This document shows positions 20,891 through 36,819 of a stretch of DNA of 64,000 nt, piece by piece (within the stretch, counting starts at the first letter, position 1; each line of letters opens with the position of its first letter). Under the pieces are notes generated by a model. The model did no database searches. It was not told the DNA's origin and saw only the letters and a list, made by a program, of their open reading frames with translations. The position numbers were made by a program, and so were the translations under genes. The DNA is taken from the NCBI GenBank assembly GCA_045127455.1, contig JBGVQK010000054.1, positions 3,059 through 67,058 of the forward strand. The letters are read 5' to 3'. The stretch is from Eubacteriales bacterium (GTDB taxonomy: Bacteria > Bacillota > Clostridia > Oscillospirales > CAG-272).

Positions 20891-20936
20891 AAAAAACGTG
20901 AGGTTCTCCCATTTGGGATGTTCCTCACGTTTTTTG
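20891..20936. terminator. Terminator of the ylxM-ffh-rpsP-khpA operon
   Basis: AAAAAACGTGAGG..CCTCACGTTTTTT. Confidence 0.75.
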
Positions 20937-20943
20937 TTACGTC

Positions 20944-21180
20944 TTAGCGAATGTCGACGTTTACTTTTTTGCCACTGTTAACCGCTGCGGCTTTCATTAC
21001 GGAACGGATCGCTTTTGCAATCTTACCGTGTCTGCCGATTACCATTCCCATATCGTCGGGGGCAACGGTGAGAGTGAGCGTAACAGTCTTTTCGTCCTCT
21101 TCTTGCGTTACCTTAACTTCGTCGGGAGAATCGACAATCGCCTTGGCGATGTTGGTGAGCGTTTCCTGCAAGTTAATCAT
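20944..21180 (-). CDS. khpA: KH-domain RNA-binding protein (YlqC/KhpA)
   Basis: DMGMVIGRHGKIAKAIR; follows rpsP. Confidence 0.93.
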   Translation of the reverse strand: MINLQETLTNIAKAIVDSPDEVKVTQEEDEKTVTLTLTVAPDDMGMVIGRHGKIAKAIRSVMKAAAVNSGKKVNVDIR

Positions 21181-21203
21181 GCTGTGTCTCCTTATCGGAC
21201 GGC

Positions 21204-21449
21204 TCAGTCAACGATGCCACTCTTCTTCAGCAGGGACTTAACGGTCTCGGTGGGTTGTGCGCCGTTGGAGAGCCACTTCTTTGCCTTTTCTGCATCGATC
21301 TTGATATCAGCGGGCTCGGTGAGAGGGTTGTAGTAACCGATCTCCTCGATGAAGCGACCGTCTCTGGGAGAACGGCTGTCTGCTACGATTACGCGATAGA
21401 AGGGTGCTTTCTTCATACCCAATCTTCTCAGTCTCATTTTTACTGCCAT
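21204..21449 (-). CDS. rpsP: 30S ribosomal protein S16
   Basis: [42 protein letters not shown]. Confidence 0.99.
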
Positions 21450-21521
21450 GGTTTGTTTCCTCCATAAATTAAAAAATATTTTTATTTTTTGTTTTTTCTT
21501 GATTTATAATGAACGGTGAAA

Positions 21522-22865
21522 TCAGAAAGGCATCTTCATTCTACCGAGCATTCTTTTGCCTTGCTTTGTTTTGCCCATATTGGAAAACTGCTTCATCATT
21601 TTGAGCATTTGCTCAAATTGCTTGAGGAGCTTATTGACCTCCTCGACCGAGGTGCCCGATCCTGCCGCAATTCTCTTTTTGCGAGATGCGTTGATCATAT
21701 CGGGGTGTTCCCTTTCGGCTTTTGTCATAGAGTGGATGATCGCCTCGGTGTGTGCCATAGCTTTTTCATCAATCTTGACGTCCTTCATAGATCCCGGCTT
21801 GACGCCCGGCATCATACCCATCAGCTGCTCAAGGTTGCCCATATTTTTGAGCTGTGCGAGCTGCTCGAGGTAATCATCAAGGGTGAAGGTCTGCTGACGC
21901 ATCTTTTGCTCAAGCTCTGCCGCTTGCTTTTCGTCGTAAGCCGCTTGTGCCTTGTCGATGAGGGTGAGCACGTCGCCCATACCGAGAATACGCGATGCCA
22001 TACGGTCGGGGTGGAAGGGCTCGATGGTATCGAGCTTTTCGCCCATACCCACAAACTTAATGGGCTTGCCTGTGACGTAGCGGATGGAAAGTGCCGCACC
22101 GCCTCTGGTGTCGCCATCGAGCTTGGTGAGAATAACGCCCGTAATATCGAGCAGATTGTTAAAGGTTTCGGCAACGTTGACAGATTCCTGACCGATCATA
22201 GAGTCGACAGTCAAAAGAATTTCATCGGGGTTGACCTCTGCCTTGATATTTTTGAGCTCATCCATGAGAACTTCGTCGATCTGCAGTCGACCTGCAGTAT
22301 CAATGAAGACCATATCGTAGCCCTTTTGGTTTGCGAATTTAATGGATTCCTTTGCGATCTCGACGGGAGAGACCTTGTCGCCCATTGTGAAAACAGGAAT
22401 ATCCAGCTTTTCACCGACTACCTGCAGCTGCTTGATTGCAGCGGGACGGTAGACGTCGCCTGCAACGAGCAACGGACGTTTGCCCTGCTTTTTATACATT
22501 CCCGCGAGCTTGCCCGCGTGGGTGGTTTTACCTGCACCCTGAAGACCGACCATCATAATAACTGTGGGGGGCTTGGATGCAATGGTGAGCTTGGCTTGCG
22601 AGCCGCCCATCAGGCGCGTGAGCTCTTCGTTTACGATCTTAACGACCTGCTGAGCAGGAAGCAAGGATTCGAGAACTTCGGCACCGACTGCACGCTCGGA
22701 AACGATTTTGATAAAGTCACGAACTACCTTGAAGTTAACGTCAGCCTCGAGCAGTGCGAGCTTGATCTCGCGCATACCCGCCTTAACGTCGGCTTCGGTA
22801 AGCTTACCCTTGTTACGAAATTTTTTAAAGGCGTTGTTTAACTTTTCGCCCAAACTTTCAAACAT
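21522..22865 (-). CDS. ffh: Signal recognition particle protein
   Basis: GLQGAGKTT, DTAGRLQ, TKLDGDTRGGAALS, Met-rich M domain. Confidence 0.99.
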   Translation of the reverse strand: MFESLGEKLNNAFKKFRNKGKLTEADVKAGMREIKLALLEADVNFKVVRDFIKIVSERAVGAEVLESLLPAQQVVKIVNEELTRLMGGSQAKLTIASKPPTVIMMVGLQGAGKTTHAGKLAGMYKKQGKRPLLVAGDVYRPAAIKQLQVVGEKLDIPVFTMGDKVSPVEIAKESIKFANQKGYDMVFIDTAGRLQIDEVLMDELKNIKAEVNPDEILLTVDSMIGQESVNVAETFNNLLDITGVILTKLDGDTRGGAALSIRYVTGKPIKFVGMGEKLDTIEPFHPDRMASRILGMGDVLTLIDKAQAAYDEKQAAELEQKMRQQTFTLDDYLEQLAQLKNMGNLEQLMGMMPGVKPGSMKDVKIDEKAMAHTEAIIHSMTKAEREHPDMINASRKKRIAAGSGTSVEEVNKLLKQFEQMLKMMKQFSNMGKTKQGKRMLGRMKMPF

Positions 22866-22885
22866 TTACGCACTCCTTTCGTCTC

Positions 22886-23221
22886 TTATCCTCCTACGGT
22901 TTCAAGGAGCTCCTTTGCAGCCTTGCGGACATCGCCCGCAACGCCCTCTTTTTCCATTAAGGAAAGCAACTCTGCGGTTTGCGCCTCGACTAACTGAAAG
23001 CGCTTTGCAAGCCCCAGCTTTTCCTCATAGAACATAAGCTCCTCGCCCGCCTTTTTGATCAGCTCGCGAACACCTTGTCTGGAAATACCGATCTCTTCGG
23101 CAATTTCTGCCAAAGAAAGATCGTCGTTATAGTAATAATCCAGCACCGTTCGTTTCCGCTCCGAGAGCACGTCGCCGTAAAAATCGAGCAAATAACCGAT
23201 TTCAAGGTTCTTTTCAAACAT
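22886..23221 (-). CDS. ylxM: YlxM family DNA-binding protein
   Basis: LLDFYGDVLSERKR..DDLSLAEIAEEIGISRQGV; upstream of ffh; start MFEKN. Confidence 0.93.
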   Translation of the reverse strand: MFEKNLEIGYLLDFYGDVLSERKRTVLDYYYNDDLSLAEIAEEIGISRQGVRELIKKAGEELMFYEEKLGLAKRFQLVEAQTAELLSLMEKEGVAGDVRKAAKELLETVGG

Positions 23222-23265
23222 CTTGTTTTCACCTCCAAATAGGTGTAAAGCAAATTGCTTTACAT

Positions 23266-23294
23266 AGTATACCATAAGACCTTTCGTTTGTCAA
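23266..23294 (-). promoter_or_regulatory. SigA promoter of ylxM-ffh
   Basis: TTGACA-17-TATACT with extended TG. Confidence 0.75.
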
Positions 23295-23386
23295 CACTTT
23301 TTCAAAAATTTTTTCGTCTTTTTTGCGTTTTTGTTGCAGTTATGCTTAAAATATGATATAATGAAGAAAAAACTTAGGAGTGCGAT

Positions 23387-24268
23387 ATGAAAACCGACGC
23401 TTGGATACAAAAAAATATGCCCTCAATGGTTGGCAAAACCGTTGCTATCAGCGGGGCTACCGGTGGAATTGGGCAAGAACTCTGCCGCCATTTGGCAGGT
23501 CTTGGCGCCGCTCTTTTGCTCCTTGACCGCAACAGCGAGCGCTCGAATGCTTGGATCGAAAAATTGAAAGTAGAATTCCCCGCTCTCAATGCGCGCCATT
23601 TACGCCTTGACCTATCCGACTTTGAGACGGTGCGTTCTGCGACCGCAGAATTGCTTGCATCCCCTCCCGATTATTTGATTTTTAACGCAGGGGCATATCA
23701 CGTTCCGCGTTATACCACGAGCATTGGACACGACAACGTTTTTCAAATCAATTTTGTCGCTCCCTACTATATGGCGCACGAGCTTCTGCCCGTTATGCGC
23801 GAGCGCGGCGGTCGCATTGTTGCCGTTGGCAGTATCGCCCACAACTATTCGCATATTGATTTAGAGGATATAGAGTTTCTCACGCGCAAACAATCCTCAA
23901 AGGTTTACGGCAATGCAAAGCGCTTTTTGATGTTCGCGCTCTTCGGACTTGACAAAGACGGCAACACGATCTCCGTCGCGCACCCGGGCATCACCTTGAC
24001 AAACATCACCGCGCACTATCCCAAGCTGATCTATGCCATTATCAAGCACCCAATGAAGGTGATCTTTATGTCTCCGCGCCGCGCATCTCTTTCCATCCTT
24101 GCGGCAATGGTGCAGGATACACAGCAAAATGAGTGGTTTGGTCCCTCTCTCTTTGACGTTTGGGGACTGCCAAAAAAGAAGCTCCTCAAAACCTGCCCCG
24201 CTGATGAGGCGGCAAAGATTTGCGGTGAGGCAGAGAAAATTGTTGAAAATTTGAAAGCTCAAAAATAA
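23387..24268 (+). CDS. Short-chain dehydrogenase/reductase
   Basis: SGATGGIG, FNAG, YGNAK (YxxxK), HPGITLT. Confidence 0.9.
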   Translation: MKTDAWIQKNMPSMVGKTVAISGATGGIGQELCRHLAGLGAALLLLDRNSERSNAWIEKLKVEFPALNARHLRLDLSDFETVRSATAELLASPPDYLIFNAGAYHVPRYTTSIGHDNVFQINFVAPYYMAHELLPVMRERGGRIVAVGSIAHNYSHIDLEDIEFLTRKQSSKVYGNAKRFLMFALFGLDKDGNTISVAHPGITLTNITAHYPKLIYAIIKHPMKVIFMSPRRASLSILAAMVQDTQQNEWFGPSLFDVWGLPKKKLLKTCPADEAAKICGEAEKIVENLKAQK

Positions 24269-24294
24269 CAGAAATATAGGAAAGGAGAAACCGA

Positions 24295-25170
24295 ATGTCA
24301 GCTTATCGCTTCATTTCCAAGGAATTGATACAAAAAGGTTGGTCGGGAGACAAAAAATACTGCGCCATTGACGAGCACGGCAACAAGTTTTTACTCCGCG
24401 TTTCTCCTATCGAGCAATATGAGCGCAAGAAAAGCGAATTTGAACTGATGCAGCAAGTGGCGGCCCTTGGCATTCCTATGTGCGAGCCGTTAGAGTTTGG
24501 CACTTCTGACGAAGGTGTCTACTCTGTTCAAACTTGGATCAATGGAATAGATGCCGAGGAAAACATTCACCGTTTTTCGTACGAGGAGCAATATTCCTAC
24601 GGCTTTGCATCGGGGCAAATTCTAAAAGAAATTCACAAAGTCCCTGCTCCCGAGGGATGTGAGGATTGGGAAATCTATTTCAACCGCAAGGCGGATCGCA
24701 AGATCAAAATGTATGCGGAATGCCCCATCAAATGTGAGAACGGTCAGGCGTTCATTGATTATATCAACGCCAACAGACACCTGCTCAAAGGGCGCCCCAG
24801 AACCTATCAGCACGGCGATTATCACATTGGCAATATGATGATCGGTGAGGATAAAAAACTCTACATCATCGACTTTAACAGAAATGATTTTGGAGACCCG
24901 TGGGAAGAATTTAATCGCATTGTTTGGTGCGCGCAAGCTGCGCCCCACTTTGCCAGCGGCATGGTGGACGGATATTTTGATAACCAAATTCCCATGGAGT
25001 TTTGGAAATTGCTTGCCTTGTATATTGCCAGCAATACTCTGTCCTCTGTGCCGTGGGCGATTCCCTTTGGTGAAAAAGAGATTGAGGTTATGCTCAATCA
25101 AGCAAAAGATGTGCTATCGTGGTATGACAATATGAAAAATCCCGTGCCGAGTTGGTACATAAGAATTTAA
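24295..25170 (+). CDS. Aminoglycoside phosphotransferase/choline kinase-like family protein
   Basis: KGWSGDKKY, HGDYHIGN, IIDFNR..GDPWEEF. Confidence 0.85.
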   Translation: MSAYRFISKELIQKGWSGDKKYCAIDEHGNKFLLRVSPIEQYERKKSEFELMQQVAALGIPMCEPLEFGTSDEGVYSVQTWINGIDAEENIHRFSYEEQYSYGFASGQILKEIHKVPAPEGCEDWEIYFNRKADRKIKMYAECPIKCENGQAFIDYINANRHLLKGRPRTYQHGDYHIGNMMIGEDKKLYIIDFNRNDFGDPWEEFNRIVWCAQAAPHFASGMVDGYFDNQIPMEFWKLLALYIASNTLSSVPWAIPFGEKEIEVMLNQAKDVLSWYDNMKNPVPSWYIRI

Positions 25171-25206
25171 ACGTTTAATATATAAATATAAAATATGCAC
25201 TTTCTA

Positions 25207-25236
25207 TTGACAAACTGCCAAAAATGGTGATATAAT
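25207..25236 (+). promoter_or_regulatory. SigA promoter of nadE
   Basis: TTGACA-18-TATAAT with extended TG. Confidence 0.65.
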
Positions 25237-25276
25237 TTTTTTGAAAGAAAGTTCCTTAACAAAGGAGTTATGAATT

Positions 25277-27175
25277 ATGAAAAATGGTTTTTTGAAGGTT
25301 GCCGCCGCCACTCCCGTGGTGCGTTTGGCTGACACAAAAGCGAATTGCGAGGCACACGTCGCGCTGGCGCAAAAAGCGTATGTCGAGGGTGTGCGCGTGC
25401 TCGTATTCCCCGAATTGTCTCTCACAGGTGCTACTTGTGGGGACCTGTTTGCGGCTGACACGCTTCTTGCAGGTGCCGCAGATGCACTCAAGGCTTACCT
25501 TGATGCCACCAAAGAGATGGATATGATATCGGTTGTGGGACTCCCCTTTGCGGCTCACGCAAAGGTCTACAACACCGCCGCCGTTTGCCACGCAGGCAAG
25601 CTTTTGGGTCTTGTGGCACAGCGCAAAGTGAACGAGCGTCATTTTGCATCCGCCCCCGATTTTGTAGAGGAAGTATCCTTTGCAGGCGAGCATGTATCGC
25701 TTGGCACCGAGCAGATATTTGAGTGCGAAACGATGCCCTCTTTGACGCTTGCCGTTGAAATTGGCGCGGATCTGCACACGCTCTATGCCCCCTCGCTCTC
25801 TCATAGCGCGGCTGGCGCTACTGTAATCTGTCACCCCGCGGCAATGCCCGAGGTCGCTTCTAAAATGCCCGCACTCGACGTCATTCTCGCGGCGCACACT
25901 GCGCGCACGCACACCGCTTATATCACATCCCTTTCGGGTGACGGTGAATCGACTACCGACAATGCCTTTGGCGGCAAAAAGCTGGTGGTTGAGAACGGTG
26001 AAGTTGTAGCTGCATCCGTTCCATTTGATGGCTCCGAGCTTCTCATTACCGAAATTGATCTTGAAAGACTGATGCACGACCGCCGCCGCGCCAATCTTGT
26101 TGACCCCGGCAGCTGTCATACGGTTGTTCCCTTCTCTCTTTCGGTTTGCGAAACAAAGCTGACGCGCAAACTTGATGCCACACCTTTTTTCCCGATAGCG
26201 CCCGCTGAGCTTGCCGCACACTGCGAGCGCGTATTGACCGTTGCCGCGGCAGGACTTAGGACGCGCATTGTGCGCGCTTACGCAAAAAAGATCGTGCTTG
26301 GCATTTCGGGCGGTCTTGACTCCACATTGGCACTCCTCACAATGGTTCGCGCTATGGACTCCCTCGGACGTCCGCGCACTGACATTGTGGCGGTTACGAT
26401 GCCCTGCTTTGGCACGACCGCGAGAACCAAGACCAATGCGACCGTTCTTTGCGAGGAGCTTGGTGTCACCTTCCGTTGTGTTGATATTTTTGATGCGGTC
26501 AACGTGCATTTCCGCGATATCGGACACGATCCCGACCTCCGCGACGTCACTTATGAGAACGCGCAAGCGCGCGAGCGCACACAGGTTTTGATGGACATTG
26601 CCAACGATTGCGGCGGTATGGTCATTGGTACGGGTGACCTCTCCGAGCTTGCTCTCGGTTGGGCAACCTACAACGGCGACCATATGTCAATGTACGGGGT
26701 GAATGCTTCCATTCCCAAGACTTTGGTCGGTCACGTGGTAAGATATTGTGCCATTCAAGCCAAGGAAAACGGACAGGAAAAGGTTGCGACGGCACTCTTT
26801 GATATTCTCGACACGCCCGTCTCGCCCGAATTGCTCCCTGCCAATGCCGACGGTAAGATCGCACAAAAGACTGAAGATTTAGTTGGTCCTTACGAATTGC
26901 ACGATTTTTATCTGTATTATTTCATTCGTTACGGCTTCTCCCCCATCAAAATCTACCGCATGGCACAGAATGCTTGGGGCGAAAAGTACAGCGATGAAGT
27001 GCTGAAAAAGTGGTTGCAGGTCTTCTTCAAGCGTTTCTTTGCGCAGCAATTCAAGCGTTCTTGTCTGCCTGACGGACCTCAGGTTGGAGAGATCTCGCTC
27101 TCGCCCAGAGGCGGCTGGCAAATGCCTTCCGATGCCGCAAGCGCTTTGTGGATGAATGAAGTTGAAAAGTTATAA
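25277..27175 (+). CDS. nadE: Two-domain NAD+ synthetase with a degenerate glutaminase domain
   Basis: Synthetase motifs intact (GISGGLDST, ENAQARER, GDLSELALGWATYNGDHMS, QFKRSCLPDGP); the nitrilase domain reads EIGADL for EICEDL. Confidence 0.93.
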   Translation: MKNGFLKVAAATPVVRLADTKANCEAHVALAQKAYVEGVRVLVFPELSLTGATCGDLFAADTLLAGAADALKAYLDATKEMDMISVVGLPFAAHAKVYNTAAVCHAGKLLGLVAQRKVNERHFASAPDFVEEVSFAGEHVSLGTEQIFECETMPSLTLAVEIGADLHTLYAPSLSHSAAGATVICHPAAMPEVASKMPALDVILAAHTARTHTAYITSLSGDGESTTDNAFGGKKLVVENGEVVAASVPFDGSELLITEIDLERLMHDRRRANLVDPGSCHTVVPFSLSVCETKLTRKLDATPFFPIAPAELAAHCERVLTVAAAGLRTRIVRAYAKKIVLGISGGLDSTLALLTMVRAMDSLGRPRTDIVAVTMPCFGTTARTKTNATVLCEELGVTFRCVDIFDAVNVHFRDIGHDPDLRDVTYENAQARERTQVLMDIANDCGGMVIGTGDLSELALGWATYNGDHMSMYGVNASIPKTLVGHVVRYCAIQAKENGQEKVATALFDILDTPVSPELLPANADGKIAQKTEDLVGPYELHDFYLYYFIRYGFSPIKIYRMAQNAWGEKYSDEVLKKWLQVFFKRFFAQQFKRSCLPDGPQVGEISLSPRGGWQMPSDAASALWMNEVEKL

Positions 27176-27190
27176 CAAGTAAAAAAAGAT

Positions 27191-27216
27191 AGCCCCGAGG
27201 ATTTTTCCTCGGGGCT
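27191..27216. terminator. Bidirectional terminator between nadE and the SipW locus
   Basis: AGCCCCGAGG..CCTCGGGGCT, preceded by an A-tract and followed by a T-rich tail. Confidence 0.75.
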
Positions 27217-27225
27217 TGGTTTTTG

Positions 27226-27768
27226 TTATTGAACTGCAGTGATTTGATTGTTGGTAACGGTTACACCCCAGCTGCTTTGTGCGGCTTCTGCAGGGTTCGC
27301 CTGAATGGCTTCGGCAAACACATCAATGACCTGTCTGCAACCGTCCTCGCTTTTTAGAGTGAGTTTTTGCCCATTCAATAAGTCGCTTGTTTTGGTTCCC
27401 ACCGCAAGCGGTGCCCTGTAATAATAGGTATCGCTATTTGCAGACTTGATCCAATCATCCCCAAGCGTAAAGCTTATGGGTTCGGGTGCTTTGTTGATCA
27501 CATTGCCGCTTGCATCAACCCAATAGGTTACCAATCGCACACGAACAAACACATCAATATTGCTGTTGCTGTTATCGTTTGTAACGGTAATGTTGGATTT
27601 TTGGTTGGCGTCAAAGGTTTCCTCAAGCTTGCAAGAAACCTTTGCGGGAGCAAAACCGCCTGTTTCCAGCTCGGAAATTTTGATCATATAGGCAACAACT
27701 CCACCAACTGTTCCGGCGAACAGAACAGAGCAAATAATGATAATTGCAATCAGTTTTTGTTTTGCCAT
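27226..27768 (-). CDS. SipW-class secreted protein (TasA/BsaA-like minor subunit)
   Basis: Signal ends GTVGGVVAYM (GxxxAY/F type); F.PAKV..EETFD..K.NITV.N; DVFVRVRLV..W; EAIQA. Confidence 0.72.
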   Translation of the reverse strand: MAKQKLIAIIIICSVLFAGTVGGVVAYMIKISELETGGFAPAKVSCKLEETFDANQKSNITVTNDNSNSNIDVFVRVRLVTYWVDASGNVINKAPEPISFTLGDDWIKSANSDTYYYRAPLAVGTKTSDLLNGQKLTLKSEDGCRQVIDVFAEAIQANPAEAAQSSWGVTVTNNQITAVQ

Positions 27769-27769
27769 A

Positions 27770-30700
27770 TTAGTTCACCGCCCCAAAGATGTTTTTGAAA
27801 ATTTGAGAATTGGAATTCAGCCAAGCCTGATTGGTAGGAGCATTGGCAAAGGTAATTGTCACTTCGTTGTTATTCAGAGAAACTTCCTGCTTGTTTGTAA
27901 CGATATCATTGTATCTCCAAGACCAATCGGTCACCTGCTCAATCGTATACTCACCTTGAAGCAAGCCTTCAATGCGGACGGTAGGATTGGAGAACGATGC
28001 CGTAACATAGAGTGTGTTTGCATCGGCAGTATTTGTTATCTTGTAAACAAACACTTGCGTCTCGTCAATACCATCAAAGCTTCTCTCAATAGTCAACGAA
28101 CCCGTTTTGCGCTCAAACTTGGCGTAGAATGTGTTGACTTCTACCTCGCTCAAATCGTTTACAGAAGGAACATACTTAGCATCTGTTGTAATGAGGTTTT
28201 CACATTCTTCCTCTTTATACCAGCCAACAAATTCAAAATATTCGTTCGCGTTTGCGGTTGATCCATTAAAGGTTTGTGCACCAGAAGTGTACAATTTGTT
28301 CTCTGCTTCCGGTGAGGTATAGCCACCTAAAGTACCGATATCTTTCTTATCTCCTCCTACAAACGTAACCGCAACGTATCTGATATTATACTGAATAGGT
28401 TCGTAGTTAAATACAATTACGTTACTTGCTTCATTTTCTGTTATGGTAACGGAACCAACAGTGTTGATTGGTCGATAACCGGAAACAAGTTTTTTATCTG
28501 CCTCGGTCAGCTCATAGGTCACTTTTTCACCGTATTTTGCTGTGAGATTTGATTTTATCGGTTTTACATTTTCCACACTACTTTGAAGATAATGAATCTC
28601 GATATCATAGTTGTAGGAATTTCTCTTATAAAAAAGATTGATCTCAACACCAGCAACGGTAACTTCAAAAGAAATCTTATTGTCACTTGTAGTTACCGTA
28701 TTGTTGTAGGTAAAGCCAAGAATTTGAGGCAATTCGACCGTTTTAGTTGCAGGAATATACTGACCAGCCTGGTAAATATAAGGTACGGCTTCCTCAATAC
28801 TGGAATGTAGATCACAATTGCCCGTATTAAGTGTTGCCGCTGTATTTCCAAGTTTCTCGGTGTAAAAATTCACAACATAATAACCTGTCGGCTGCTCTTG
28901 TAACGTATACTCGAATTCAATCACATTTTTTTCGGTGTCACTTACATAATCTCCTTGGTCATTCTGCTTGATAGAAAGAACCAAAGATTTCTTATAAGAA
29001 TCCGGTGTGTAATACTTAATATTGTTAGGATCTGATTCGTCCGTATACGGGAAATACGAATGCACAACGTAGGAGCTTGTTGTTTTAACTTTTGCCTCGC
29101 CATCTACGATTTCTGTACCGTCTGCCAAAGAATCGTTAATGGGAAGACGTGCACCGGTTGCGGCATCCACATATCTAATTGTATACTCCAGTTCTCCATC
29201 AACATGGAAATACTTAAAAGCATATTCGTTCCCGAATTCGCCGATAACAATTGAGTGAGACTGAGAAATTGGGAAATAATTTGTTTGATATTGAGAATAC
29301 AGAGCACTACCAGCTTTTGCAACAAAAGTCTTTGTTGAGTTTTCGCGTGCTACACCCGTGGTAGGATCTGCTATTTGAATTGTTGATCCATTCTCTTCGT
29401 ACACATAATTTACTGTATAATCACGAGGAGTGGTTCCCTCCCAGACAGCAAATATTTCCATGTCTCCCTTGATAGGGGTATGAGCAGGGTCATATTTCTT
29501 TCTGGTCATACCATCCACATAAAACCATCCCATAAAGTGATCGTTATCGCGAGTAGGGTCTTTAACCGTTAGAGCATTATTATCTTTGGTTGAACCAATC
29601 ATTGTACCATGAGGAATTTTAACATTCTCATTACCATCGCCGCCAAATTGATACAAAAGGTCACCGTTCAAAGACTCATAAAACTTTACGGTATAGGTGT
29701 TTTTAACCCAGTATGCATGAAGAATAACATCCTCTTCGGGAATTGTAAAGGTATTGAGATCAACAATCGTAGCATCTGAGCAGGGGGATGTGCTACACCA
29801 GCCCTTAAATACATAGGCACCCGGCTCGAGTGTTGTGGGATAATAAGTGGCAAAATTTTTAGAAAGATCCCAATCAAAATCTACCAAACTATCCTTTAAC
29901 AAGCTGCCAAAAGGCTCATTTGTTACGGTATGAATTTCCACACCCTCATTTTTAAAGGTTATGGTTTGACTTGTGAGAAGACGGTAGTAGAAATAATATT
30001 TGTAAACATCTACCCCTTCATTGCTACCCGTAGTTGGGTCAACAACAACGTTAATGCATTCGTAACCGTCAAGCGAAATTTTTGTTTGATTTCCGATTTG
30101 ATCCTTTTCGGAATTATCAAATACAGAGAACGATCTGGACAAAAGATACCAAATCCCGTCCTTTTTTTGATAGGTTTGATCGTTTTGTACATAGGTGGTA
30201 CTACCGGAGGCTACGGAGTTAAGCTCCAGTTGCTTGCTTTCTGGAACCTGCAAATAGATGTGATACACAAATTCATGCGGAATGCTCCAGGCTATGTCGG
30301 CACCGTTTACCCAATAACAGAGATAGCTAACAATCGTATCGTCGTGGTATCCCGGAATGGTGTTATCAAACACAAGATTTTCATCAAGATACTGATATGC
30401 CCCCTTAATTGTTTGGTTGCTGTTATCCGTGCTGTATTTTACACCCTTTTGACCGTTCCAAGCACTAAAATAGGCTTTGCTCCATTGACAAGTGTGGTTA
30501 GTATGCTCTTCATCAATTTCAACAGATTCAAATTTGTCAACGGGCCAAACGGCAGATATGTCATCACCAAACGGTGCTACAAACTCAAAATAGTAATATG
30601 TGAAACCGTTTGCCTCCAACGTCCCAGTTTTCAGCTTATATTCACTTTTTAAGTTGGGATCCGTAATATAGTCTTCTTTAAGAGCAGGAAGATCTTTTAC

Positions 30701-32548
30701 CTTACCCCATTCGGTCGTGTTATTCAGCAACGTGGGGACTGCAGCCCACGCGTCCTCGTTGTTTATGCTATTTTTGTCGGCAAAATCACCAAAATTATAC
30801 GTTGTACCACCAACCACCTCATAGATACCTTCAGAATCCTTTCGTGCATAAAAGAATCTCAACGTATACTCTTTATGACGGTAATAAACATTGATAACCG
30901 TTGTTCCATCGCCTTCAATGATTACATTTTGATCGGCAGAGTCATAAACCAAATGGGTTGCGCCCATTTCACACTGAGAATTGTGCACATGTTCTTCAAG
31001 GCCGCAAATATAATTGTAGCAAGAATCATTATGCGTGTGACCGCATTTTAATGATGCACCATTGACAGAATATTTGTAAACATAATACCCATTATTTTCT
31101 GCTGTTCCCAACACTTCGCCGGAAACATAGTTCCCCATATTGTTTGCAGAAACGGCGTTTCCAATCTGATACCAAGTATTATTTACATACAGTTTTAGCC
31201 AGTAACGATTGTAATACTTATCAGTATCTGTTTGAATTGCATAAACGCTACCATTTTCGTATTGTCCGCTTTCTAATGCGTCAATGACATTTTTATCTCC
31301 AGAACCTAATGATCCTACATAGCTAAAAGGGGATTTAATACAGGCATCCGTGTGTATATGTCCACAAGGCATACAAATCGTTGTATGTGCATGTTCACTC
31401 GTAAAGCCACATATATAGCCAAAATCAATATCATCTGAACCACTCACAAGGCCCCCTGCGGTAGCATCTGTAACTGTTTTGGTGCCAAGAAGATACTGAT
31501 GTCCATTCTCTTCTTTTGCCCAGTAGACAATAACATATGAAGTTGCGCCTGCATCGGCAATCCAATCTGCCAGGTAGTAGCGGTTTTGAACCCCGATTGT
31601 TTTTGGCAAATTTGCCGCATTCAGTAAAGGAGCATTATTTGCCTTTTGATCCGGAATTCCGTCACTATTACTATCAACGGTAAGCTCATACCAACCATTA
31701 AAAGTGTATCCTGGTTTTGTGGGAACGCCAGTAGTTATATTTGCTCCGTAACGTTCATATATCTGATCAACGCCGAAACCATCGACGAGATTGAAGTTCA
31801 TCGAGTAGTATTCCCTATCGAAGTAAACCTGAAATACCGTACTTCCATCGGCAGCAACCATATCGGGAATAGCGTGAAGCAGTTTGTATCCTTGTTCAAA
31901 ATTCTCGGGCAAATTGGGGTTATCATCTATCATCGATGCTAATGCTTCATCAGAAAAGACACTTCCGGTTTTTGCTTTGTCGGAGAGTGAAAGAGCGGTG
32001 ATTTCTGTGTAACCATCTCCAACGGTATCTTGAAAATAATACCTAACGGTATAATTTACATCAGCCGCAGTGTAATAAACGTAATAAATAAGTTGATTGT
32101 TGCTATCAACATTGTTCAGATTGAACTTGAGAAGATTTGTTTCATTGTCAATTCCAACTCCATCATCATTGTAATTGAGCAATTTGGCATTCCGTTCTTC
32201 AGGCGTATCATCAGCGGATAATTCTACTTGTGTAACGTAAGATGCCTTGTAACCAACCAAAGAACGAACCAAAAATGTTTCGTTAAATGTTGTCTCGCCC
32301 GCACCAATAACGATATTCATAGGGTCCGGAAGATTGCTATCTACGTCAGCTGATGCATTTTGAGGATCGTAGCAATATATAACAACAATGTCACCGTGAT
32401 AGCCCACCAACGCATTGATTGCATCTTTGATGCCGGAGAAGTCGAAGGTGGGAAGGAATTCGACGGCGCTTGCCACAAAGGTGAGCATTTCGGTGGTCAA
32501 AAGCATGCAAATGCAGAGGATTACACATAAAATTTTCTTCATATTCAT
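27770..32548 (-). CDS. Large secreted adhesin-like protein (InlB B-repeat-like and MucBP-like modules, His/Cys motifs), no LPXTG/SLH/TM anchor
   Basis: Sec signal ending VASA; PTKPGYTFNGWY, YVFKGW, FMGWFY and FVGWY repeats; YTVRYY/YTVNYV/YTIRYV modules; C-terminal YTIEQVTDWSWRY..WLNSNSQIFKNIF; AT-richer than the core genes. Confidence 0.8.
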   Translation of the reverse strand: MNMKKILCVILCICMLLTTEMLTFVASAVEFLPTFDFSGIKDAINALVGYHGDIVVIYCYDPQNASADVDSNLPDPMNIVIGAGETTFNETFLVRSLVGYKASYVTQVELSADDTPEERNAKLLNYNDDGVGIDNETNLLKFNLNNVDSNNQLIYYVYYTAADVNYTVRYYFQDTVGDGYTEITALSLSDKAKTGSVFSDEALASMIDDNPNLPENFEQGYKLLHAIPDMVAADGSTVFQVYFDREYYSMNFNLVDGFGVDQIYERYGANITTGVPTKPGYTFNGWYELTVDSNSDGIPDQKANNAPLLNAANLPKTIGVQNRYYLADWIADAGATSYVIVYWAKEENGHQYLLGTKTVTDATAGGLVSGSDDIDFGYICGFTSEHAHTTICMPCGHIHTDACIKSPFSYVGSLGSGDKNVIDALESGQYENGSVYAIQTDTDKYYNRYWLKLYVNNTWYQIGNAVSANNMGNYVSGEVLGTAENNGYYVYKYSVNGASLKCGHTHNDSCYNYICGLEEHVHNSQCEMGATHLVYDSADQNVIIEGDGTTVINVYYRHKEYTLRFFYARKDSEGIYEVVGGTTYNFGDFADKNSINNEDAWAAVPTLLNNTTEWGKVKDLPALKEDYITDPNLKSEYKLKTGTLEANGFTYYYFEFVAPFGDDISAVWPVDKFESVEIDEEHTNHTCQWSKAYFSAWNGQKGVKYSTDNSNQTIKGAYQYLDENLVFDNTIPGYHDDTIVSYLCYWVNGADIAWSIPHEFVYHIYLQVPESKQLELNSVASGSTTYVQNDQTYQKKDGIWYLLSRSFSVFDNSEKDQIGNQTKISLDGYECINVVVDPTTGSNEGVDVYKYYFYYRLLTSQTITFKNEGVEIHTVTNEPFGSLLKDSLVDFDWDLSKNFATYYPTTLEPGAYVFKGWCSTSPCSDATIVDLNTFTIPEEDVILHAYWVKNTYTVKFYESLNGDLLYQFGGDGNENVKIPHGTMIGSTKDNNALTVKDPTRDNDHFMGWFYVDGMTRKKYDPAHTPIKGDMEIFAVWEGTTPRDYTVNYVYEENGSTIQIADPTTGVARENSTKTFVAKAGSALYSQYQTNYFPISQSHSIVIGEFGNEYAFKYFHVDGELEYTIRYVDAATGARLPINDSLADGTEIVDGEAKVKTTSSYVVHSYFPYTDESDPNNIKYYTPDSYKKSLVLSIKQNDQGDYVSDTEKNVIEFEYTLQEQPTGYYVVNFYTEKLGNTAATLNTGNCDLHSSIEEAVPYIYQAGQYIPATKTVELPQILGFTYNNTVTTSDNKISFEVTVAGVEINLFYKRNSYNYDIEIHYLQSSVENVKPIKSNLTAKYGEKVTYELTEADKKLVSGYRPINTVGSVTITENEASNVIVFNYEPIQYNIRYVAVTFVGGDKKDIGTLGGYTSPEAENKLYTSGAQTFNGSTANANEYFEFVGWYKEEECENLITTDAKYVPSVNDLSEVEVNTFYAKFERKTGSLTIERSFDGIDETQVFVYKITNTADANTLYVTASFSNPTVRIEGLLQGEYTIEQVTDWSWRYNDIVTNKQEVSLNNNEVTITFANAPTNQAWLNSNSQIFKNIFGAVN

Positions 32549-32563
32549 ATATGTAGTCCTCCT

Positions 32564-33205
32564 TTAATTATTTTTGACCGAATCCCACGCTTCGGTCGCG
32601 TTTTCAAAGCCGATGCTTTGCACAGCAATGGCTTTGACGGAAATAGAAATGTCCCCGCCTGTTTTTAAAGCGGAAAGATCGGCTGCGGTTGCCTGATTAC
32701 TGATGGCAACACCTCCGTTTACGCCGTTTTGATTGGTAAAGATTTGAACATCGGCAAGCACTACGTTGGGATCAAGTGCTCGATAGAACACAAATTTGTC
32801 GCCGTCGGTTATCAGGTGGGTCCAATCACTGTTGACCCCGAGAGTTGCAATTTCTTTTTCACCGTGCTTAATTTTCAGCATGTTCTCTGCGTACGTCCAA
32901 TGCTCTGAAGGTGTGATTACAACAAACACAAAGGTTGCCGATTCACTACCGGCAAAATCTAATTTAACTTCGTTTTTGGCAGTAATGCCAGGGGAAAGGA
33001 TGAGGTAGTTGTCGCCGGGTTGTGTAAGGGTAATATCGCCAAAGCGGATAACTCTTGCGCTGGCGGAGCTTGTGTTTTTGCTGATATAACGCGCGTAAAG
33101 CCCGTTGATAGCATAGGAAGAAAGCAGTACCGCGCACAAAAGCAAGAGGGCTACGTGCATCGTTGAAAACAGCGGTGCTTTATTATTCGATTTTAAAAAT
33201 TTCAT
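32564..33205 (-). CDS. SipW-class secreted protein (TasA-like minor subunit)
   Basis: NGLYARY then ARVIRF; ILSPG; shares its pattern with the 35091-35723 product. Confidence 0.75.
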   Translation of the reverse strand: MKFLKSNNKAPLFSTMHVALLLLCAVLLSSYAINGLYARYISKNTSSASARVIRFGDITLTQPGDNYLILSPGITAKNEVKLDFAGSESATFVFVVITPSEHWTYAENMLKIKHGEKEIATLGVNSDWTHLITDGDKFVFYRALDPNVVLADVQIFTNQNGVNGGVAISNQATAADLSALKTGGDISISVKAIAVQSIGFENATEAWDSVKNN

Positions 33206-33226
33206 AATTTACACCGCCTTTCGTGA

Positions 33227-33832
33227 TTAGTTTTCTTCCTTATTATTTATATCGGTGGTTTCTTGTGGGGGTTCGGCATCCTTTTTGAGTTCTTCGATCT
33301 CGCGGCGAATGGCGGCAAGCTCTTCGGCTTTTTTGTCTTTTTCCTTTTTAAAGGATGCTTCCAAGAGCCAAACGGCAGCGCCAAGCAAAAGGATGGTGCC
33401 AAACGGGGTTTTGATAAGATTGACGATGAGACCGATAAACGGAATGGCGAAAATGACCTTTCCCTTTATGTTCTCTTTTGCAATGGGGTCATCATCTGTA
33501 TTGTTTGCGTCACCGCGCGTGATGATCTTATCGCCGTTGATTGCGACGATGCGATGCACCACGGCAGTTCGCTGGGTTTGATAAACGACTACGTCGCCAA
33601 CCTCGTAGGTATCGGATGGGGTGACGATTAAAAGGTCGTCGACCGAAAGCTCAGGTTCCATGCTGCCCGAAAGAACGACCGTCATGCCAAAGCCAAACGG
33701 CATTGGGAGCGCGTTGCCGCCAAGCATGCTTGCATTGATTGAATAAATGCTAACACCAATAAGGACAGCCAACAGAACGAGAACCGAAATTCGAATAACT
33801 GATTTCAGTTGAATTTTCAAAACAAACTCCAA
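33227..33832 (-). CDS. sipW: Signal peptidase I, SipW (ER-type, Ser-His)
   Basis: VVLSGSMEP (Ser), VVHRIV (His), TRGDANNTDD, C-terminal TM. Confidence 0.93.
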   Translation of the reverse strand: MEFVLKIQLKSVIRISVLVLLAVLIGVSIYSINASMLGGNALPMPFGFGMTVVLSGSMEPELSVDDLLIVTPSDTYEVGDVVVYQTQRTAVVHRIVAINGDKIITRGDANNTDDDPIAKENIKGKVIFAIPFIGLIVNLIKTPFGTILLLGAAVWLLEASFKKEKDKKAEELAAIRREIEELKKDAEPPQETTDINNKEEN

Positions 33833-33838
33833 TTAACT

Positions 33839-34912
33839 TTATGAAATAACTACGGCACCGCCCGCCGAGGCGACAATGCGCTTTGCATCGGCAGAAGCAC
33901 TGTTTACAAAGATAACAAGCGGTTTTGTGAGAACAAAGTTGGGACTTGCCGTAAGGTGGATGCTGCTTGTATTAACAGGCACCAAGCCTCTTCTCTTTAA
34001 GGTTGCGAGGTTGATAACTGCAGCTCCATGGAAGTTTGCCGCCAACATTTCGAGGGTAATGGTTTGCGTGCTGCTGGGGGCTTCTTTCTTTTCTTCCTTG
34101 GGAGCAGGAACAAATTCGGGATCCACGATTCCTGCAAGTGCTTCCTTGCGCTTCTTAACGATTACAGCAATGGTAACGATTGCAGATATAAGAAGAATGC
34201 CTGCCGCCATTGCAAGGGCGAGGTTCTTGCCCATATCGGGGTGCCCCTCCCAACCGCCGTTGGCATCCAACGTGGTGTTTGCTACTGCGTGGAAGGTAAA
34301 GGAGATCTCAACGCCAACGTCTCTATCCTGATTGCCGAGCTCGGTATCAAAGCCGTCGTTTCCGCTCTCATAGGGCCATTGCCATTCAAAAACGTATTCG
34401 GCTGCTTTGGTCTTTTCGAGCGTGCCCGTGTGGCTGAGGCTTCTCAAATCCTGCAGGGTTGCCCATTGTTCATCGGAGCCGAGAACGTACTCGCCATCAG
34501 AGGTTTTCATTTTGACTTGCAGCGGAACCTGATATCTGGTGGAGAAAACGACCTTTGGCTTGAGCTCATAATCAAGCGCGTATTCGTCGGCATTGCGCAA
34601 ACGAACGGTGTAGGAAGAACCCGAGCCGGGGGCTATGACCTTATTCTCGTTGTTACTTTGAATAATGACTTCGCCGGATTCGTTTGTGTATTGGAGAGCA
34701 AAAAGGTGAACTTTGGCATCGTTGCCTACCTCAATTGTCACCTCGCGCTTATCCTGCTGTGCGTAGTCGGCAATGCGAATGCCGAGAAGAATGGTTGAGA
34801 GGAGCAAAAGCGTAATGGTAACAACCAAAAAGATGCGTTGCTTGTTGGATACCTGCAGCTTTTCCAATTCAAGGTCACTATTCACTTTTGTAGAGGCTTT
34901 TTCTTGTGCCAT
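33839..34912 (-). CDS. Two-TM protein: TasA-like extracellular domain plus a cytoplasmic uL15-like domain (putative filament base)
   Basis: TM1 IFLVVTITLLLLSTILLG; VIAPGSGSSYTVRLRN and YVFEWQWPYE; TM2 followed by KKRK; C-terminal LTKPLVIFVNSASADAKRIVASAGG, resembling the L15 C-domain. Confidence 0.72.
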   Translation of the reverse strand: MAQEKASTKVNSDLELEKLQVSNKQRIFLVVTITLLLLSTILLGIRIADYAQQDKREVTIEVGNDAKVHLFALQYTNESGEVIIQSNNENKVIAPGSGSSYTVRLRNADEYALDYELKPKVVFSTRYQVPLQVKMKTSDGEYVLGSDEQWATLQDLRSLSHTGTLEKTKAAEYVFEWQWPYESGNDGFDTELGNQDRDVGVEISFTFHAVANTTLDANGGWEGHPDMGKNLALAMAAGILLISAIVTIAVIVKKRKEALAGIVDPEFVPAPKEEKKEAPSSTQTITLEMLAANFHGAAVINLATLKRRGLVPVNTSSIHLTASPNFVLTKPLVIFVNSASADAKRIVASAGGAVVIS

Positions 34913-35090
34913 TGCGTTTTTCTCCTTTCATCAAATTTTGTTTTTTGGCTTTTCACGACAATCAGTTGCATTTGATCGCCCTGAAAAACCAAAAATCTCG
35001 CGATTTTTGATTTTGTATCCCCCCGCCCCCAGCCACGATGGGTTGGGGGGATATCAATTTTGTTTTAGATTTGTCTAATTTGGGTTAGAA

Positions 35091-35723
35091 TTAGTCACCG
35101 AGTTGGGTTACTTCTACAGAGCAAGTAAAGCTGATTTCGGGAGCAGGATTAAGCTTGCCAAGTTTGGTATCGCTTGCATTGTCACCCTCGAATGCCCATG
35201 CCCAAGAAACGGAAAGACTGCTCGCAAGAGTAGCATTAGCTGCTACTTCTGCCTTACTGAGAGCAGTGAACTTAGCTTCAACAGCTGCTTCAAGTTCTTC
35301 AAGAGTATCGATTTCGCCTTCCATCTTGATTTCCTCAGCGCCTACGGTGAATACGATAGGACAATATACGGTATCGGTATCAATTACCCATCCTGTGAGT
35401 TCGAGGTCAGCGGTTACAACAACCTTAACCTTAACTTCGGTGGTACCAGAAATACTAACGCCACCAAGAACGCCTTCAGTACCGGGAGCAACAACTTTTA
35501 CACCAGTTTCAGAGGAGATTACATCACCATCTTCATAATTGGTCAAAAAAGCAGTTTCACCGATAGCGTCTACAGTAACACCCCACTTTGCTACGCGAGC
35601 AGTTTCGAGAGCGGTACTATCGGTTGTGGTATACTTTGCGAACGTGCCGGAAATAGCACAGGTTGTCATAAGAACTGCTACCAAAAGAGCGGAAGCAACT
35701 CTCATCATTACGTTTTTCTTCAT
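35091..35723 (-). CDS. SipW-class TasA/CalY-like protein, probable major filament subunit
   Basis: ISGTFAKY, ARVAKW, VVAPGT, WAWAFE; strongly biased codon usage (many GCT/GTT/GAA) suggests high expression; flanked by stem-loops. Confidence 0.85.
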   Translation of the reverse strand: MKKNVMMRVASALLVAVLMTTCAISGTFAKYTTTDSTALETARVAKWGVTVDAIGETAFLTNYEDGDVISSETGVKVVAPGTEGVLGGVSISGTTEVKVKVVVTADLELTGWVIDTDTVYCPIVFTVGAEEIKMEGEIDTLEELEAAVEAKFTALSKAEVAANATLASSLSVSWAWAFEGDNASDTKLGKLNPAPEISFTCSVEVTQLGD

Positions 35724-35941: not shown

Positions 35942-36721
35942 TTACTCCTGCTTGGGTTGTTCAGCTTGAGGAGTAGGCTCGGGGGCTGCTTCGGGTGCGG
36001 GTTGCGTTTCAACCTTTTCCTCTGCCTTGACCTCTTCGGCGGCATCAGCCTTTGCTTGTGCGCTGACCTCGGCTGCCTTGGCTTTTTCTGCCTTGAGTGC
36101 CTCAAGCTCGGCGCGGAGAGCATCAACGTCTTCGGTCTTGCCCTTTTCGTACATCTTGCGGCGGATAACGTCGTATCCAACAAACAGAAGAATGGGAACG
36201 ACTACGCAAACGATAAGTCCGCCCGGCTTTTGCATTGCCATTGCAAGGTTGCCTGCACCGCCAATGCGGAAGTCATCCCATTTGCCAACGATCTTATCTG
36301 CCTCGCGGAGCTTGCCGTCGGGTGTGGGGTTGTTGATACCTTGCGTTCTGAATTTTACTTCACCGTTCTCTTCGATAACCTCGATTACCTTGTGAGTCCA
36401 AATGGTTGTGTAATTATCCTCGGCTGCGTAGAAGGAAATAACCGTTCCAACCTCAATTTCGCTGGGGTCCACTTCCTTTACAATGATGAGGTCGCCCTTT
36501 TTGATATCGGGATACATAGAATCTGAAAGGACGATGAGCGGAACAACGCCCGCAAAATCGGGCACCTCGTTTTTGTTGATAAAGCTCTTGATAATGAGCG
36601 TGCAGTTGACTATGAGAATGGGTACTAAAATGACGCACAAAACGATGCCAATGATTGTGAGCGTTCTTTGCTTTTTATCTACCGCTTGATTTTGAACGTT
36701 TGATTTTTCGTTCGTCGACAT
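35942..36721 (-). CDS. sipW: Signal peptidase I, SipW paralog with an Ala/Glu/Pro-rich tail
   Basis: IVLSDSMYP (Ser), WTHKVI (His), RTQGINNPTPD, C-terminal TM. Confidence 0.9.
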   Translation of the reverse strand: MSTNEKSNVQNQAVDKKQRTLTIIGIVLCVILVPILIVNCTLIIKSFINKNEVPDFAGVVPLIVLSDSMYPDIKKGDLIIVKEVDPSEIEVGTVISFYAAEDNYTTIWTHKVIEVIEENGEVKFRTQGINNPTPDGKLREADKIVGKWDDFRIGGAGNLAMAMQKPGGLIVCVVVPILLFVGYDVIRRKMYEKGKTEDVDALRAELEALKAEKAKAAEVSAQAKADAAEEVKAEEKVETQPAPEAAPEPTPQAEQPKQE

Positions 36722-36790: not shown

Positions 36791-36819
36791 ATTTTATCAC
36801 TTTTTCATCACAATGTCAA
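36791..36819 (-). promoter_or_regulatory. SigA promoter of the SipW locus
   Basis: TTGACA-17-TAAAAT with extended TG, inside an AT-rich intergenic region. Confidence 0.7.

Follow-up and report, generated by a model that had tools for sequence, protein, structure and literature searches.

Fibres of the TasA/BsaA type are known as biofilm scaffolds, and to our knowledge no description exists of specific adhesins on them or of the way such adhesins would be mounted. We analyzed a stretch of 64,000 nucleotides (nt) of contig JBGVQK010000054.1 (positions 3,059 to 67,058 of the forward strand) from an Eubacteriales bacterium, hereafter called the window, whose minus strand holds a compact operon of about 9.6 kb between positions 27191 and 36819. 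Judged by its genes, this operon of a gut Clostridia bacterium specifies a TasA/BsaA-type surface fibre with subunits processed by SipW. It encodes, in order, a SipW-type signal peptidase, a shaft subunit, a membrane base, a second SipW, a minor subunit, a large adhesin and a BsaA-like subunit, an arrangement designated architecture A below. The C-terminal module of the adhesin probably serves as a handle that couples exchangeable adhesins to the fibre via the downstream BsaA-family subunit, the putative point of attachment. No published account of the module or of its pairing with this subunit was found in the literature searched.

The closest functional analogues are the tip adhesins of the WxL (Elr) pili of Enterococcus and Lactobacillales, reported in October 2026 (bioRxiv 10.64898/2026.10.17.759780), while by descent the closest are the CnaB end-domains of sortase-pilus adhesins together with the bsa system of Clostridium perfringens. 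In both the WxL pili and the present family, the module is strictly C-terminal (2,867 of 2,871 proteins there, 179 of 179 here), the payloads are variable and largely unannotated and include repeat and lectin-like modules, the pilin partners lie in the same operon, a base with a KKRK-type tail is tethered to membrane or wall, and assembly uses donor-strand exchange rather than sortase polymerization, which for the present fibre is proposed from its genes. The WxL module, however, is an incomplete immunoglobulin fold with an open groove, whereas the present one is predicted to be a complete CnaB sandwich and has no Pfam WxL match. The pilins there are primed by a DUF916/DUF3324 chaperone, in contrast to the SipW-processed TasA/BsaA shaft here, and the WxL pili are found in Bacilli, ours in Clostridia, with a polarity that is probably opposite.

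The C. perfringens operon sipW-bsaA-bsaB-bsaC (Obana 2020, PMC7395162; Kivimaki 2025 preprint, PMC11580942) likewise has SipW, BsaA-family subunits with N-terminal donor-strand exchange, and a large non-subunit protein; BsaA and BsaB are without an LPXTG motif, and the partner subunit of our adhesin (P0002) matches the family model TIGR04090, though below its cut-off. However, BsaC is a vWA protein without the module, and a paired cassette of adhesin handle and adaptor was not described there; the window locus differs further in its two sipW genes, in a base with a uL15-like tail, and in having Gly37 at the position of the donor Asn in P0002. The C-terminal CnaB domain of Cpa/Spy0125 of Streptococcus pyogenes (PDB 4BUG, 2XIC; DUF5979; PMC12617251) is among the best structural matches to the module; it stands at the end of a pilus adhesin, beside the attachment point, and relatives of the module keep its Lys-Glu-Asn triad. 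Unlike this domain, the module is not followed by a sorting signal, its genome has no sortase, and the triad has been lost in the clade of the window. The module has also gained a DWSWR insertion and a WL..N.F tail, and the window sequence reaches no Pfam model. TapA of Bacillus subtilis (PMC9674648) is comparable as an accessory protein giving a strand to a TasA-type groove, which is the logic proposed below for the tail of the module, but it donates an N-terminal strand, is an anchor or nucleator and not a distal adhesin, and is unrelated to the module in sequence and fold. When the TapA-family model TIGR04087 was applied to the two subunits flanking the adhesin, the minor subunit (P0003) gave no match and 2 of the 47 members of the downstream family gave weak ones (E ~2e-3).

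The adhesin, its parts and its partner are located in the window as follows.

27770..32548, minus strand: adhesin (P0001, 1592 amino acids); open reading frame confirmed by translation.
32465..32548, minus strand: adhesin signal peptide, residues 1-28 (..FVASA); the sole hydrophobic stretch, 94% kept between alleles with different passengers.
28142..32406, minus strand: variable passenger, residues ~48-1469, with Flg_new/InlB-B repeats and a Cys/His cluster, AT-rich; from Pfam, GC content, blastn and allele identities.
27845..28105, minus strand: CnaB/prealbumin-like core of the C-terminal module, residues 1482-1568; from the seven strands of an AlphaFold2 (AF2) model, Foldseek and the Pfam matches of relatives.
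27914..27928, minus strand: invariant DWSWR loop, residues 1541-1545; from alignment columns.
27773..27844, minus strand: conserved C-terminal tail, residues 1569-1592 (..WLNSNSQIFKNIFGAVN); candidate donor strand or lock segment with Asn1586 and Phe1588, predicted to be disordered alone.
27226..27768, minus strand: cognate BsaA-family subunit (P0002, 180 amino acids), candidate adhesin-fibre adaptor; TIGR04090, partner gene 3' of the adhesin.

Searched exhaustively with HMMER, a set of 1.84 billion representatives yielded 687 clusters containing the module at E<=1e-3. The module envelope ended no more than 40 residues from the C-terminus in all 179 proteins retrieved, and no more than 10 residues from it in 163, and none of the 179 carried a sorting signal (LPXTG) after the module. 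A decayed sorting signal behind the module was considered and rejected, since the tails were 0-40 residues long and without a transmembrane (TM) segment; a C-terminal domain of the type IX secretion system was also rejected, since the lineage is monoderm and is not known to have such a system. We retrieved 80 genomic loci from Oscillospiraceae, Ruminococcus, Acutalibacteraceae and Lachnospiraceae, including Roseburia and Faecalimonas. Besides architecture A, these contained an architecture B with sipW, three to five subunits, the adhesin, the P0002-type subunit and then a base of about 220 residues with an LPXTG-like/TM end. The initial annotation of the window, made from the sequence alone, had proposed checking the module for co-occurrence with sipW using a hidden Markov model (HMM). 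For 52 loci, 3.5 kb or more of DNA was available 5' of the adhesin; in 47 of these, sipW lay upstream on the same strand, and the other five had TasA-like subunits or a downstream sipW; the module thus did not occur mainly in sortase-anchored or non-sipW contexts. In the source genome (assembly of 2.14 Mb, 95% complete), the terminal module was present in a single copy, the only two TIGR02228-type genes were the sipW genes of the fibre operon, and no sortase gene was found.

The module was also linked to one particular subunit. In about 76 of the 80 loci, the adhesin gene was followed, at -58 to +32 nt, by a P0002-type gene encoding 170-230 amino acids. In relatives the two genes often overlapped by 4 nt (ATGA), an arrangement suggestive of translational coupling. 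Longer partners of 421, 570, 578 and 1032 amino acids, with a large C-terminal extension, occurred in L043, L070, L073 and G047:C70. The reverse test consisted of two whole-genome HMM searches, one with the module and one with the P0002 type, in 251 genomes sampled from the order. Strong matches to the module were found in 20 genomes, about 8% of those sampled, and the 20 best P0002-type matches (104-234 bits) came from the same 20 genomes, each immediately 3' of the module; a further 30 genomes contained weaker TasA-like paralogues only and no module. The module and the P0002-type subunit thus form a 1:1 cassette. Because the module was confined to the protein end, occurred in fibre operons and was nearly always accompanied by a dedicated subunit gene, it is most likely a handle joining adhesin and fibre. 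The other neighbour of the adhesin, P0003 (the 32564 product), showed no specific coupling to the module.

TIGR04090, the model for BsaA family SipW-dependent biofilm matrix proteins, matched all 47 members of the P0002 family, with a best E of 2.4e-14; P0002 itself scored 29.6 bits against a cut-off of 60, aligning over its N-terminal 104 residues only. The P0002 type has a SipW-type signal, a donor segment and a C-terminal A-x-A-I-Q motif. Its N-terminal strand, N-x-F-x-P-A-x-V-S-C-x-V-x-E, is long and highly conserved, and Glu50 and Lys57 are near-invariant.

The anatomy of the adhesin agreed in most respects with the initial annotation. The 1592-residue open reading frame with a Sec signal (..VASA) was confirmed, the signal being the lone hydrophobic stretch of the protein. 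Of the passenger modules proposed, the InlB-B-like ones were recovered as Flg_new (PF09479; InlB B-repeat, or Listeria-Bacteroides repeat) in four stretches, with a score of 40.2 bits (cut-off 27), and with Flg_new_2 marginally under its cut-off; the MucBP-like ones were not, since Pfam gave no MucBP match even at E<=10. The end of the protein is anchorless, as had been noted: over the full 1592 residues there was neither an LPXTG-like motif nor a C-terminal hydrophobic stretch or TM segment, and Pfam gave no match to WxL, SLH, CBM or other wall-binding families. A search of PDB sequences with the whole adhesin returned noise only. The predicted compact, beta-rich C-terminal domain was borne out by a seven-stranded AF2 model of residues 1482-1592. 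The gene is tightly set between two TasA-like genes, also as annotated, and its AT-richness was reproduced, with a GC content of 0.396 in the passenger and a GC content at third codon positions (GC3) of 0.37 in the whole gene, compared with 0.51 and 0.63 in the adjacent nrdD and a GC content of 0.47-0.50 in sipW. The stop codon of P0003 and the start codon of the adhesin share a frame 15 nt apart (32549-32563), and the adhesin stop lies 1 nt (27769) from the P0002 start.

Within the passenger, a Cys/His cluster occupies window positions 30971-31411 (adhesin residues 380-526), where the pattern C-G-x(1-4)-H-x-H-x(2-4)-C appears as CGFTSEHAHTTIC, CGHIHTDAC, CGHTHNDSC and CGLEEHVHNSQC. The motif, which had no Pfam match, recurred in 29 of the 69 full-length members of the family and may represent a metal site or a structural knot. 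Three other proteins, P0032, P0034 and P0035, carry BNR/sialidase-like passenger domains on the same C-terminal handle, so the handle also mounts probable enzymes or lectins in addition to repeat adhesins.

The passenger proved to be exchanged between strains. On contig L084, which is conspecific and has the same gene order and neighbours, blastn aligned window positions 32407-35056 at 98.2% and 20892-28141 at 96.2% identity, and gave no alignment within the passenger (28142-32406). The alleles P0008 (1430 amino acids) and P0009 (1423 amino acids) were 94% identical to the adhesin over the first 50 residues and 88-95% identical over the last 100, with 21-50% identity between. The breakpoints of the swap, at residue ~47 and 124 residues before the C-terminal end, coincided with the borders of the signal peptide and the module, and P0002 was 97% identical in the L084 strain in spite of the different passenger. 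The proposal that the adhesin is a swappable cassette is therefore strongly supported: a passenger that cannot be aligned lies between flanks of 96-98% identity. A further allele, P0010, was a mosaic relative to P0001, with 96-100% identity over most of residues 51-300 and ~850-1500 and 40-86% over residues ~350-850, so recombination has also taken place inside the passenger and not only at its borders. The shaft subunit P0006 shows a comparable division. Its first 48 residues, comprising the signal and donor segment (..AKYTTT..ARVAKWG), were identical to those encoded at L084:6846-7451, the remainder was about 30% identical, and its GC3 of 0.35 was as low as that of the adhesin. The exposed part of P0006 thus seems to have been replaced or to be under diversifying selection, with the assembly strand kept. 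By analogy with these constant assembly elements and variable exposed parts, the constant module of the adhesin would be an assembly element too.

The AF2 model of the last 111 residues (1482-1592), built on a 24-row alignment, was a seven-stranded sandwich with a predicted local distance difference test (pLDDT) score of 79.6 and two short helical turns at DWSWR(Y) between strands 5 and 6. According to this model, the module is a complete CnaB/prealbumin-type sandwich (DUF5979/DUF7601-like) with no strand missing. The best Foldseek matches were Cpa/Spy0125, GBS52 and CnaB2, with a probability of 1.00 and E ~1e-4. The module on its own (a 112-residue piece) had no match in Pfam even at E<=10, and none in NCBIfam. 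The terminal domains of distant relatives, in turn, matched DUF5979 (PF19407; P0029, P0034), DUF7601 (PF24547; P0029) and, under the cut-off, SpaA (PF17802; P0036). These three families were surveyed as CnaB-like with a Lys-Glu-Asn isopeptide, DUF5979 being exemplified by Cpa residues 606-718 (PMC12617251).

The invariant columns of the module were I6, V34, Y53, D60-W61-S62-W63-R64, F86, W95 and L96, and S100 was at least 90% conserved. From the strand topology, the DWSWR segment (E-F loop) and the tail after strand G (WL...) would lie at the pole opposite the passenger entry. The isopeptide triad, consisting of Lys in LTI-x-K, Glu in YTVTE and Asn in TF-x-N of the last strand, was kept in about 36 of 81 family members. 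It is absent from the window adhesin, which has Arg (LTIER) for Lys and Gln (YTIEQ) for Glu, as in its clade, and this joint replacement indicates that the internal lock was lost as a unit. The handle Lys/Glu follow the architecture of the locus, K/E occurring mostly with a downstream base and R/Q with an upstream base.

We infer the attachment of the adhesin to the fibre, its tip position and its contact surfaces from these data and from the tail of the module. The module would couple the adhesin to the fibre with the BsaA-family subunit P0002 as its specific partner. P0002 would join the shaft by its own N-terminal donor strand, which would place the adhesin at the distal end; the conserved tail would enter the P0002 groove as a C-terminal donor-like strand, and the DWSWR pole would pack against P0002. 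Since only the handle and its partner need to be constant, passengers would be exchangeable by recombination between signal peptide and handle.

The tail itself scored a pLDDT of only 36-56 in AF2. Across 158 distinct tails, the consensus was W-L-[D/N]-G-[N/D]-S-x3-4-N-x-F, with an Asn at positions 7-16 in 150, and in architecture B the start of the shaft subunits, past the SipW site, reads [Y/W]-[L/F]-T-D-x5-6-N-T-F-T-V-G, so that tails and these donor strands have the spacing [W/Y]-[L/F]-x7-8-N-x-F in common. The shaft strand is the one known from BsaA, which polymerizes by N-terminal donor-strand exchange with a V-x-N-x-F strand, whose Asn35 was proposed to lock onto Lys74 with Glu56 (PMC11580942). 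A position-specific scoring matrix (PSSM) derived solely from the shaft donor strands placed the tail window among the highest-ranking 1% of all windows for 55% of 67 adhesins. The bases of architecture B combine an ordinary signal peptide and a TasA-like core with a wall or membrane anchor, and no donor motif occurs in them. An acceptor-only base at one end of the chain requires a donor-only cap at the other, and this polarity favours the tail as donor. A disulfide between a tail Cys and the Cys of the partner's VSC segment was considered and rejected, since the tail Cys is absent in the window adhesin and in many relatives.

Several results weigh against this reading. The same PSSM without its first two positions placed only 31% of the tails in the top 5%, a local HMM scan of the adhesins with donor-strand profiles gave no enrichment at the tail, the signal of the full-length PSSM depending largely on the W/Y-L start, and the sequences behind the tail and donor counts are phylogenetically related and not independent. 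The tail resembles the shaft donors of the other architecture and not the ARV-x-K-[FW]-G type of the window's own shaft, and the tail Asn varies within the window's clade, where RNIF, KYIF and KHIF all occur. TasA was not recovered for the partner subunit, the PDB profile search giving noise and Foldseek no match. Sortases were present elsewhere in 36 of 40 other module-bearing genomes; the source genome and its nearest relative are sortase-free, which is not general among carriers of the module, so sortase independence holds for the adhesin itself and not for the whole organelle. Lastly, a co-fold stand-in was obtained from locus L021, where a natural stop codon was read through as Gly to give a single chain of the module, one codon and the full P0002-type protein, on an alignment of 127 rows, of which 24 were paired and the others unpaired halves. 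The model had a pLDDT of 91 and a predicted template modelling (pTM) score of 0.58, with the tail at a pLDDT of about 50 and the signal peptide helical. No docking was evident, in what was a weak test because the signal peptide was uncleaved and the L021 tail lacks the Phe; in a Foldseek search of the model the CnaB half dominated, without a TasA match. On balance, the resemblance of the tail to donor strands is modest, though real.

The initial annotation had proposed the opposite arrangement, in which the terminal domain accepts a donor strand from a neighbouring minor subunit. FimH-type and WxL-type tip adhesins work in this way, as acceptors only at the tip. The module is genomically coupled to a subunit with a long, conserved N-terminal strand, which could serve as such a donor. 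The B. subtilis anchoring protein TapA reportedly acts as strand donor, and this orientation would leave a donor strand free distally; in chaperone-usher and WxL pili, moreover, the tip adhesins do use a C-terminal acceptor module (10.64898/2026.10.17.759780). Against an acceptor stand the seven CnaB strands, all present at high confidence in AF2, and the Lys/Glu/Asn triad of relatives, which covalently joins the first and last strands and so argues against an incomplete sandwich. In addition, the co-fold that the annotation had suggested, approximated with the L021 single chain for the 27226-type product, gave no confident docking and left the N-terminal segment of the subunit unplaced as a strand, and the bases of architecture B, being without a donor motif, argue for the reverse polarity. 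We consider an acceptor role unlikely, and a C-terminal donor-like tail the better alternative, though unproven. Genomic evidence, by way of the specific partner encoded at 27226, gives good support to the wider claim of the annotation that the adhesin is retained through the filament, but neither donor-strand acceptance nor coupling to the 32564 product was upheld. An extension of the tail model is covalent: after docking of the CnaB handle, Asn1586 of the tail would enter the groove of the P0002-type subunit and be locked to its Lys57 by a spontaneous isopeptide bond with Glu50 as catalyst, giving a sortase-free, SpyTag-like mounting with a donor-only tip and an acceptor-only base, opposite to chaperone-usher and WxL pili. 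A BsaA-like lock of Glu50 and Lys57 is speculation by analogy, and the covalent scheme as a whole seems improbable at present.

Two further explanations dispense with docking onto the fibre. The module might be a non-covalent anchor to wall or polysaccharide through an aromatic platform (W-S-W-R-Y and W-L), as was once assumed for WxL and CBM-like modules, with the adhesin sitting on the wall and the operon reflecting co-regulation only. The invariant residues, DWSWR(Y) and WL, are indeed mostly exposed aromatics, the adhesin has neither a covalent anchor nor a sortase, and the L021 stand-in showed no docking. Such an anchor, however, would have no need of a 1:1, often translationally coupled partner gene and should also turn up away from sipW operons and in more than one protein per genome, whereas the module occurs once per genome and nearly only in these operons; the lack of Pfam matches to wall-binding families points the same way, and we regard this explanation as quite improbable. 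The adhesin might instead be released as a matrix or secreted protein, and the BsaA-like P0002 would then be its nucleator, an aid to its export or a chaperone reserved for it, and not a structural adaptor. In C. perfringens, the comparable large protein BsaC of the bsa operon has been detected in the secretome (PMC11580942), the pairing by itself fits a chaperone as well as an adaptor, and TapA and CapP are precedents for chaperone-like minor proteins. Release is, in our estimate, very improbable, because the P0002 type has the full anatomy of a subunit, from SipW-type signal and donor segment to A-x-A-I-Q, and because the two ends of the adhesin alone are conserved across passenger swaps, as fits a structural handle.

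The module and P0002-type subunit together define a widespread two-gene cassette, in which a handle derived from CnaB and confined to the C-terminus is paired with a BsaA-like subunit of its own, and strains of one gut species swap the passenger exactly between signal peptide and handle. Its modular design recalls that of the WxL tip adhesins described from Bacilli in October 2026, but fold and fibre are unrelated, and it offers a concrete, testable model of how gut Clostridia could display adhesins independently of sortase. The signature DWSWR...WL-x-G-x-S...N-x-F retrieves the adhesin repertoire of such fibres from metagenomic data. The cassette would be a natural plug-in system of practical interest if the tail is a locking donor strand.

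The remaining features of the operon, in the order of transcription, are listed below.

36791..36819, minus strand: best candidate for a sigma-70-like promoter, 5' of the first sipW; 11/12 consensus positions and an extended TG, from consensus match only.
35942..36721, minus strand: sipW paralogue 2 (P0007, 259 amino acids), SipW/archaeal-type signal peptidase I; TIGR02228 at 94.5 bits, cut-off 51.85.
35091..35723, minus strand: shaft subunit, probably the major one (P0006, 210 amino acids); SipW-type signal and donor segment ..GTFAKYTTT..ARVAKWG, groups with TasA-like subunits of related loci.
33839..34912, minus strand: candidate membrane-anchored base (P0005, 357 amino acids); C-terminal TM segment and uL15-like cytoplasmic tail, PF00828 at residues 295-355.
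33227..33832, minus strand: sipW paralogue 1 (P0004, 201 amino acids), just 5' of the block of minor subunit, adhesin and adaptor; TIGR02228 at 86.9 bits, cut-off 51.85.
32564..33205, minus strand: minor TasA-like subunit (P0003, 213 amino acids); profile family of the other subunits, equivalent position in architecture-A loci.
27191..27216, no strand assigned: strong bidirectional intrinsic terminator ending the operon; 11-bp stem with 8 GC pairs, T-tracts on both strands.

The promoter-like site at 36791..36819 is likely to be the start of the operon. From P0005 to P0002, the intergenic gaps were 6, 21, 15 and 1 nt. P0003 had no match in the Pfam and NCBIfam libraries; an iterated profile over the 80 related loci grouped it in one family with the other subunits, with which it has a C-terminal A-x-A-[IV]-Q motif in common. 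The perfect 11-bp stem of the terminator at 27191-27216 is common to the fibre operon and the convergent nadE.

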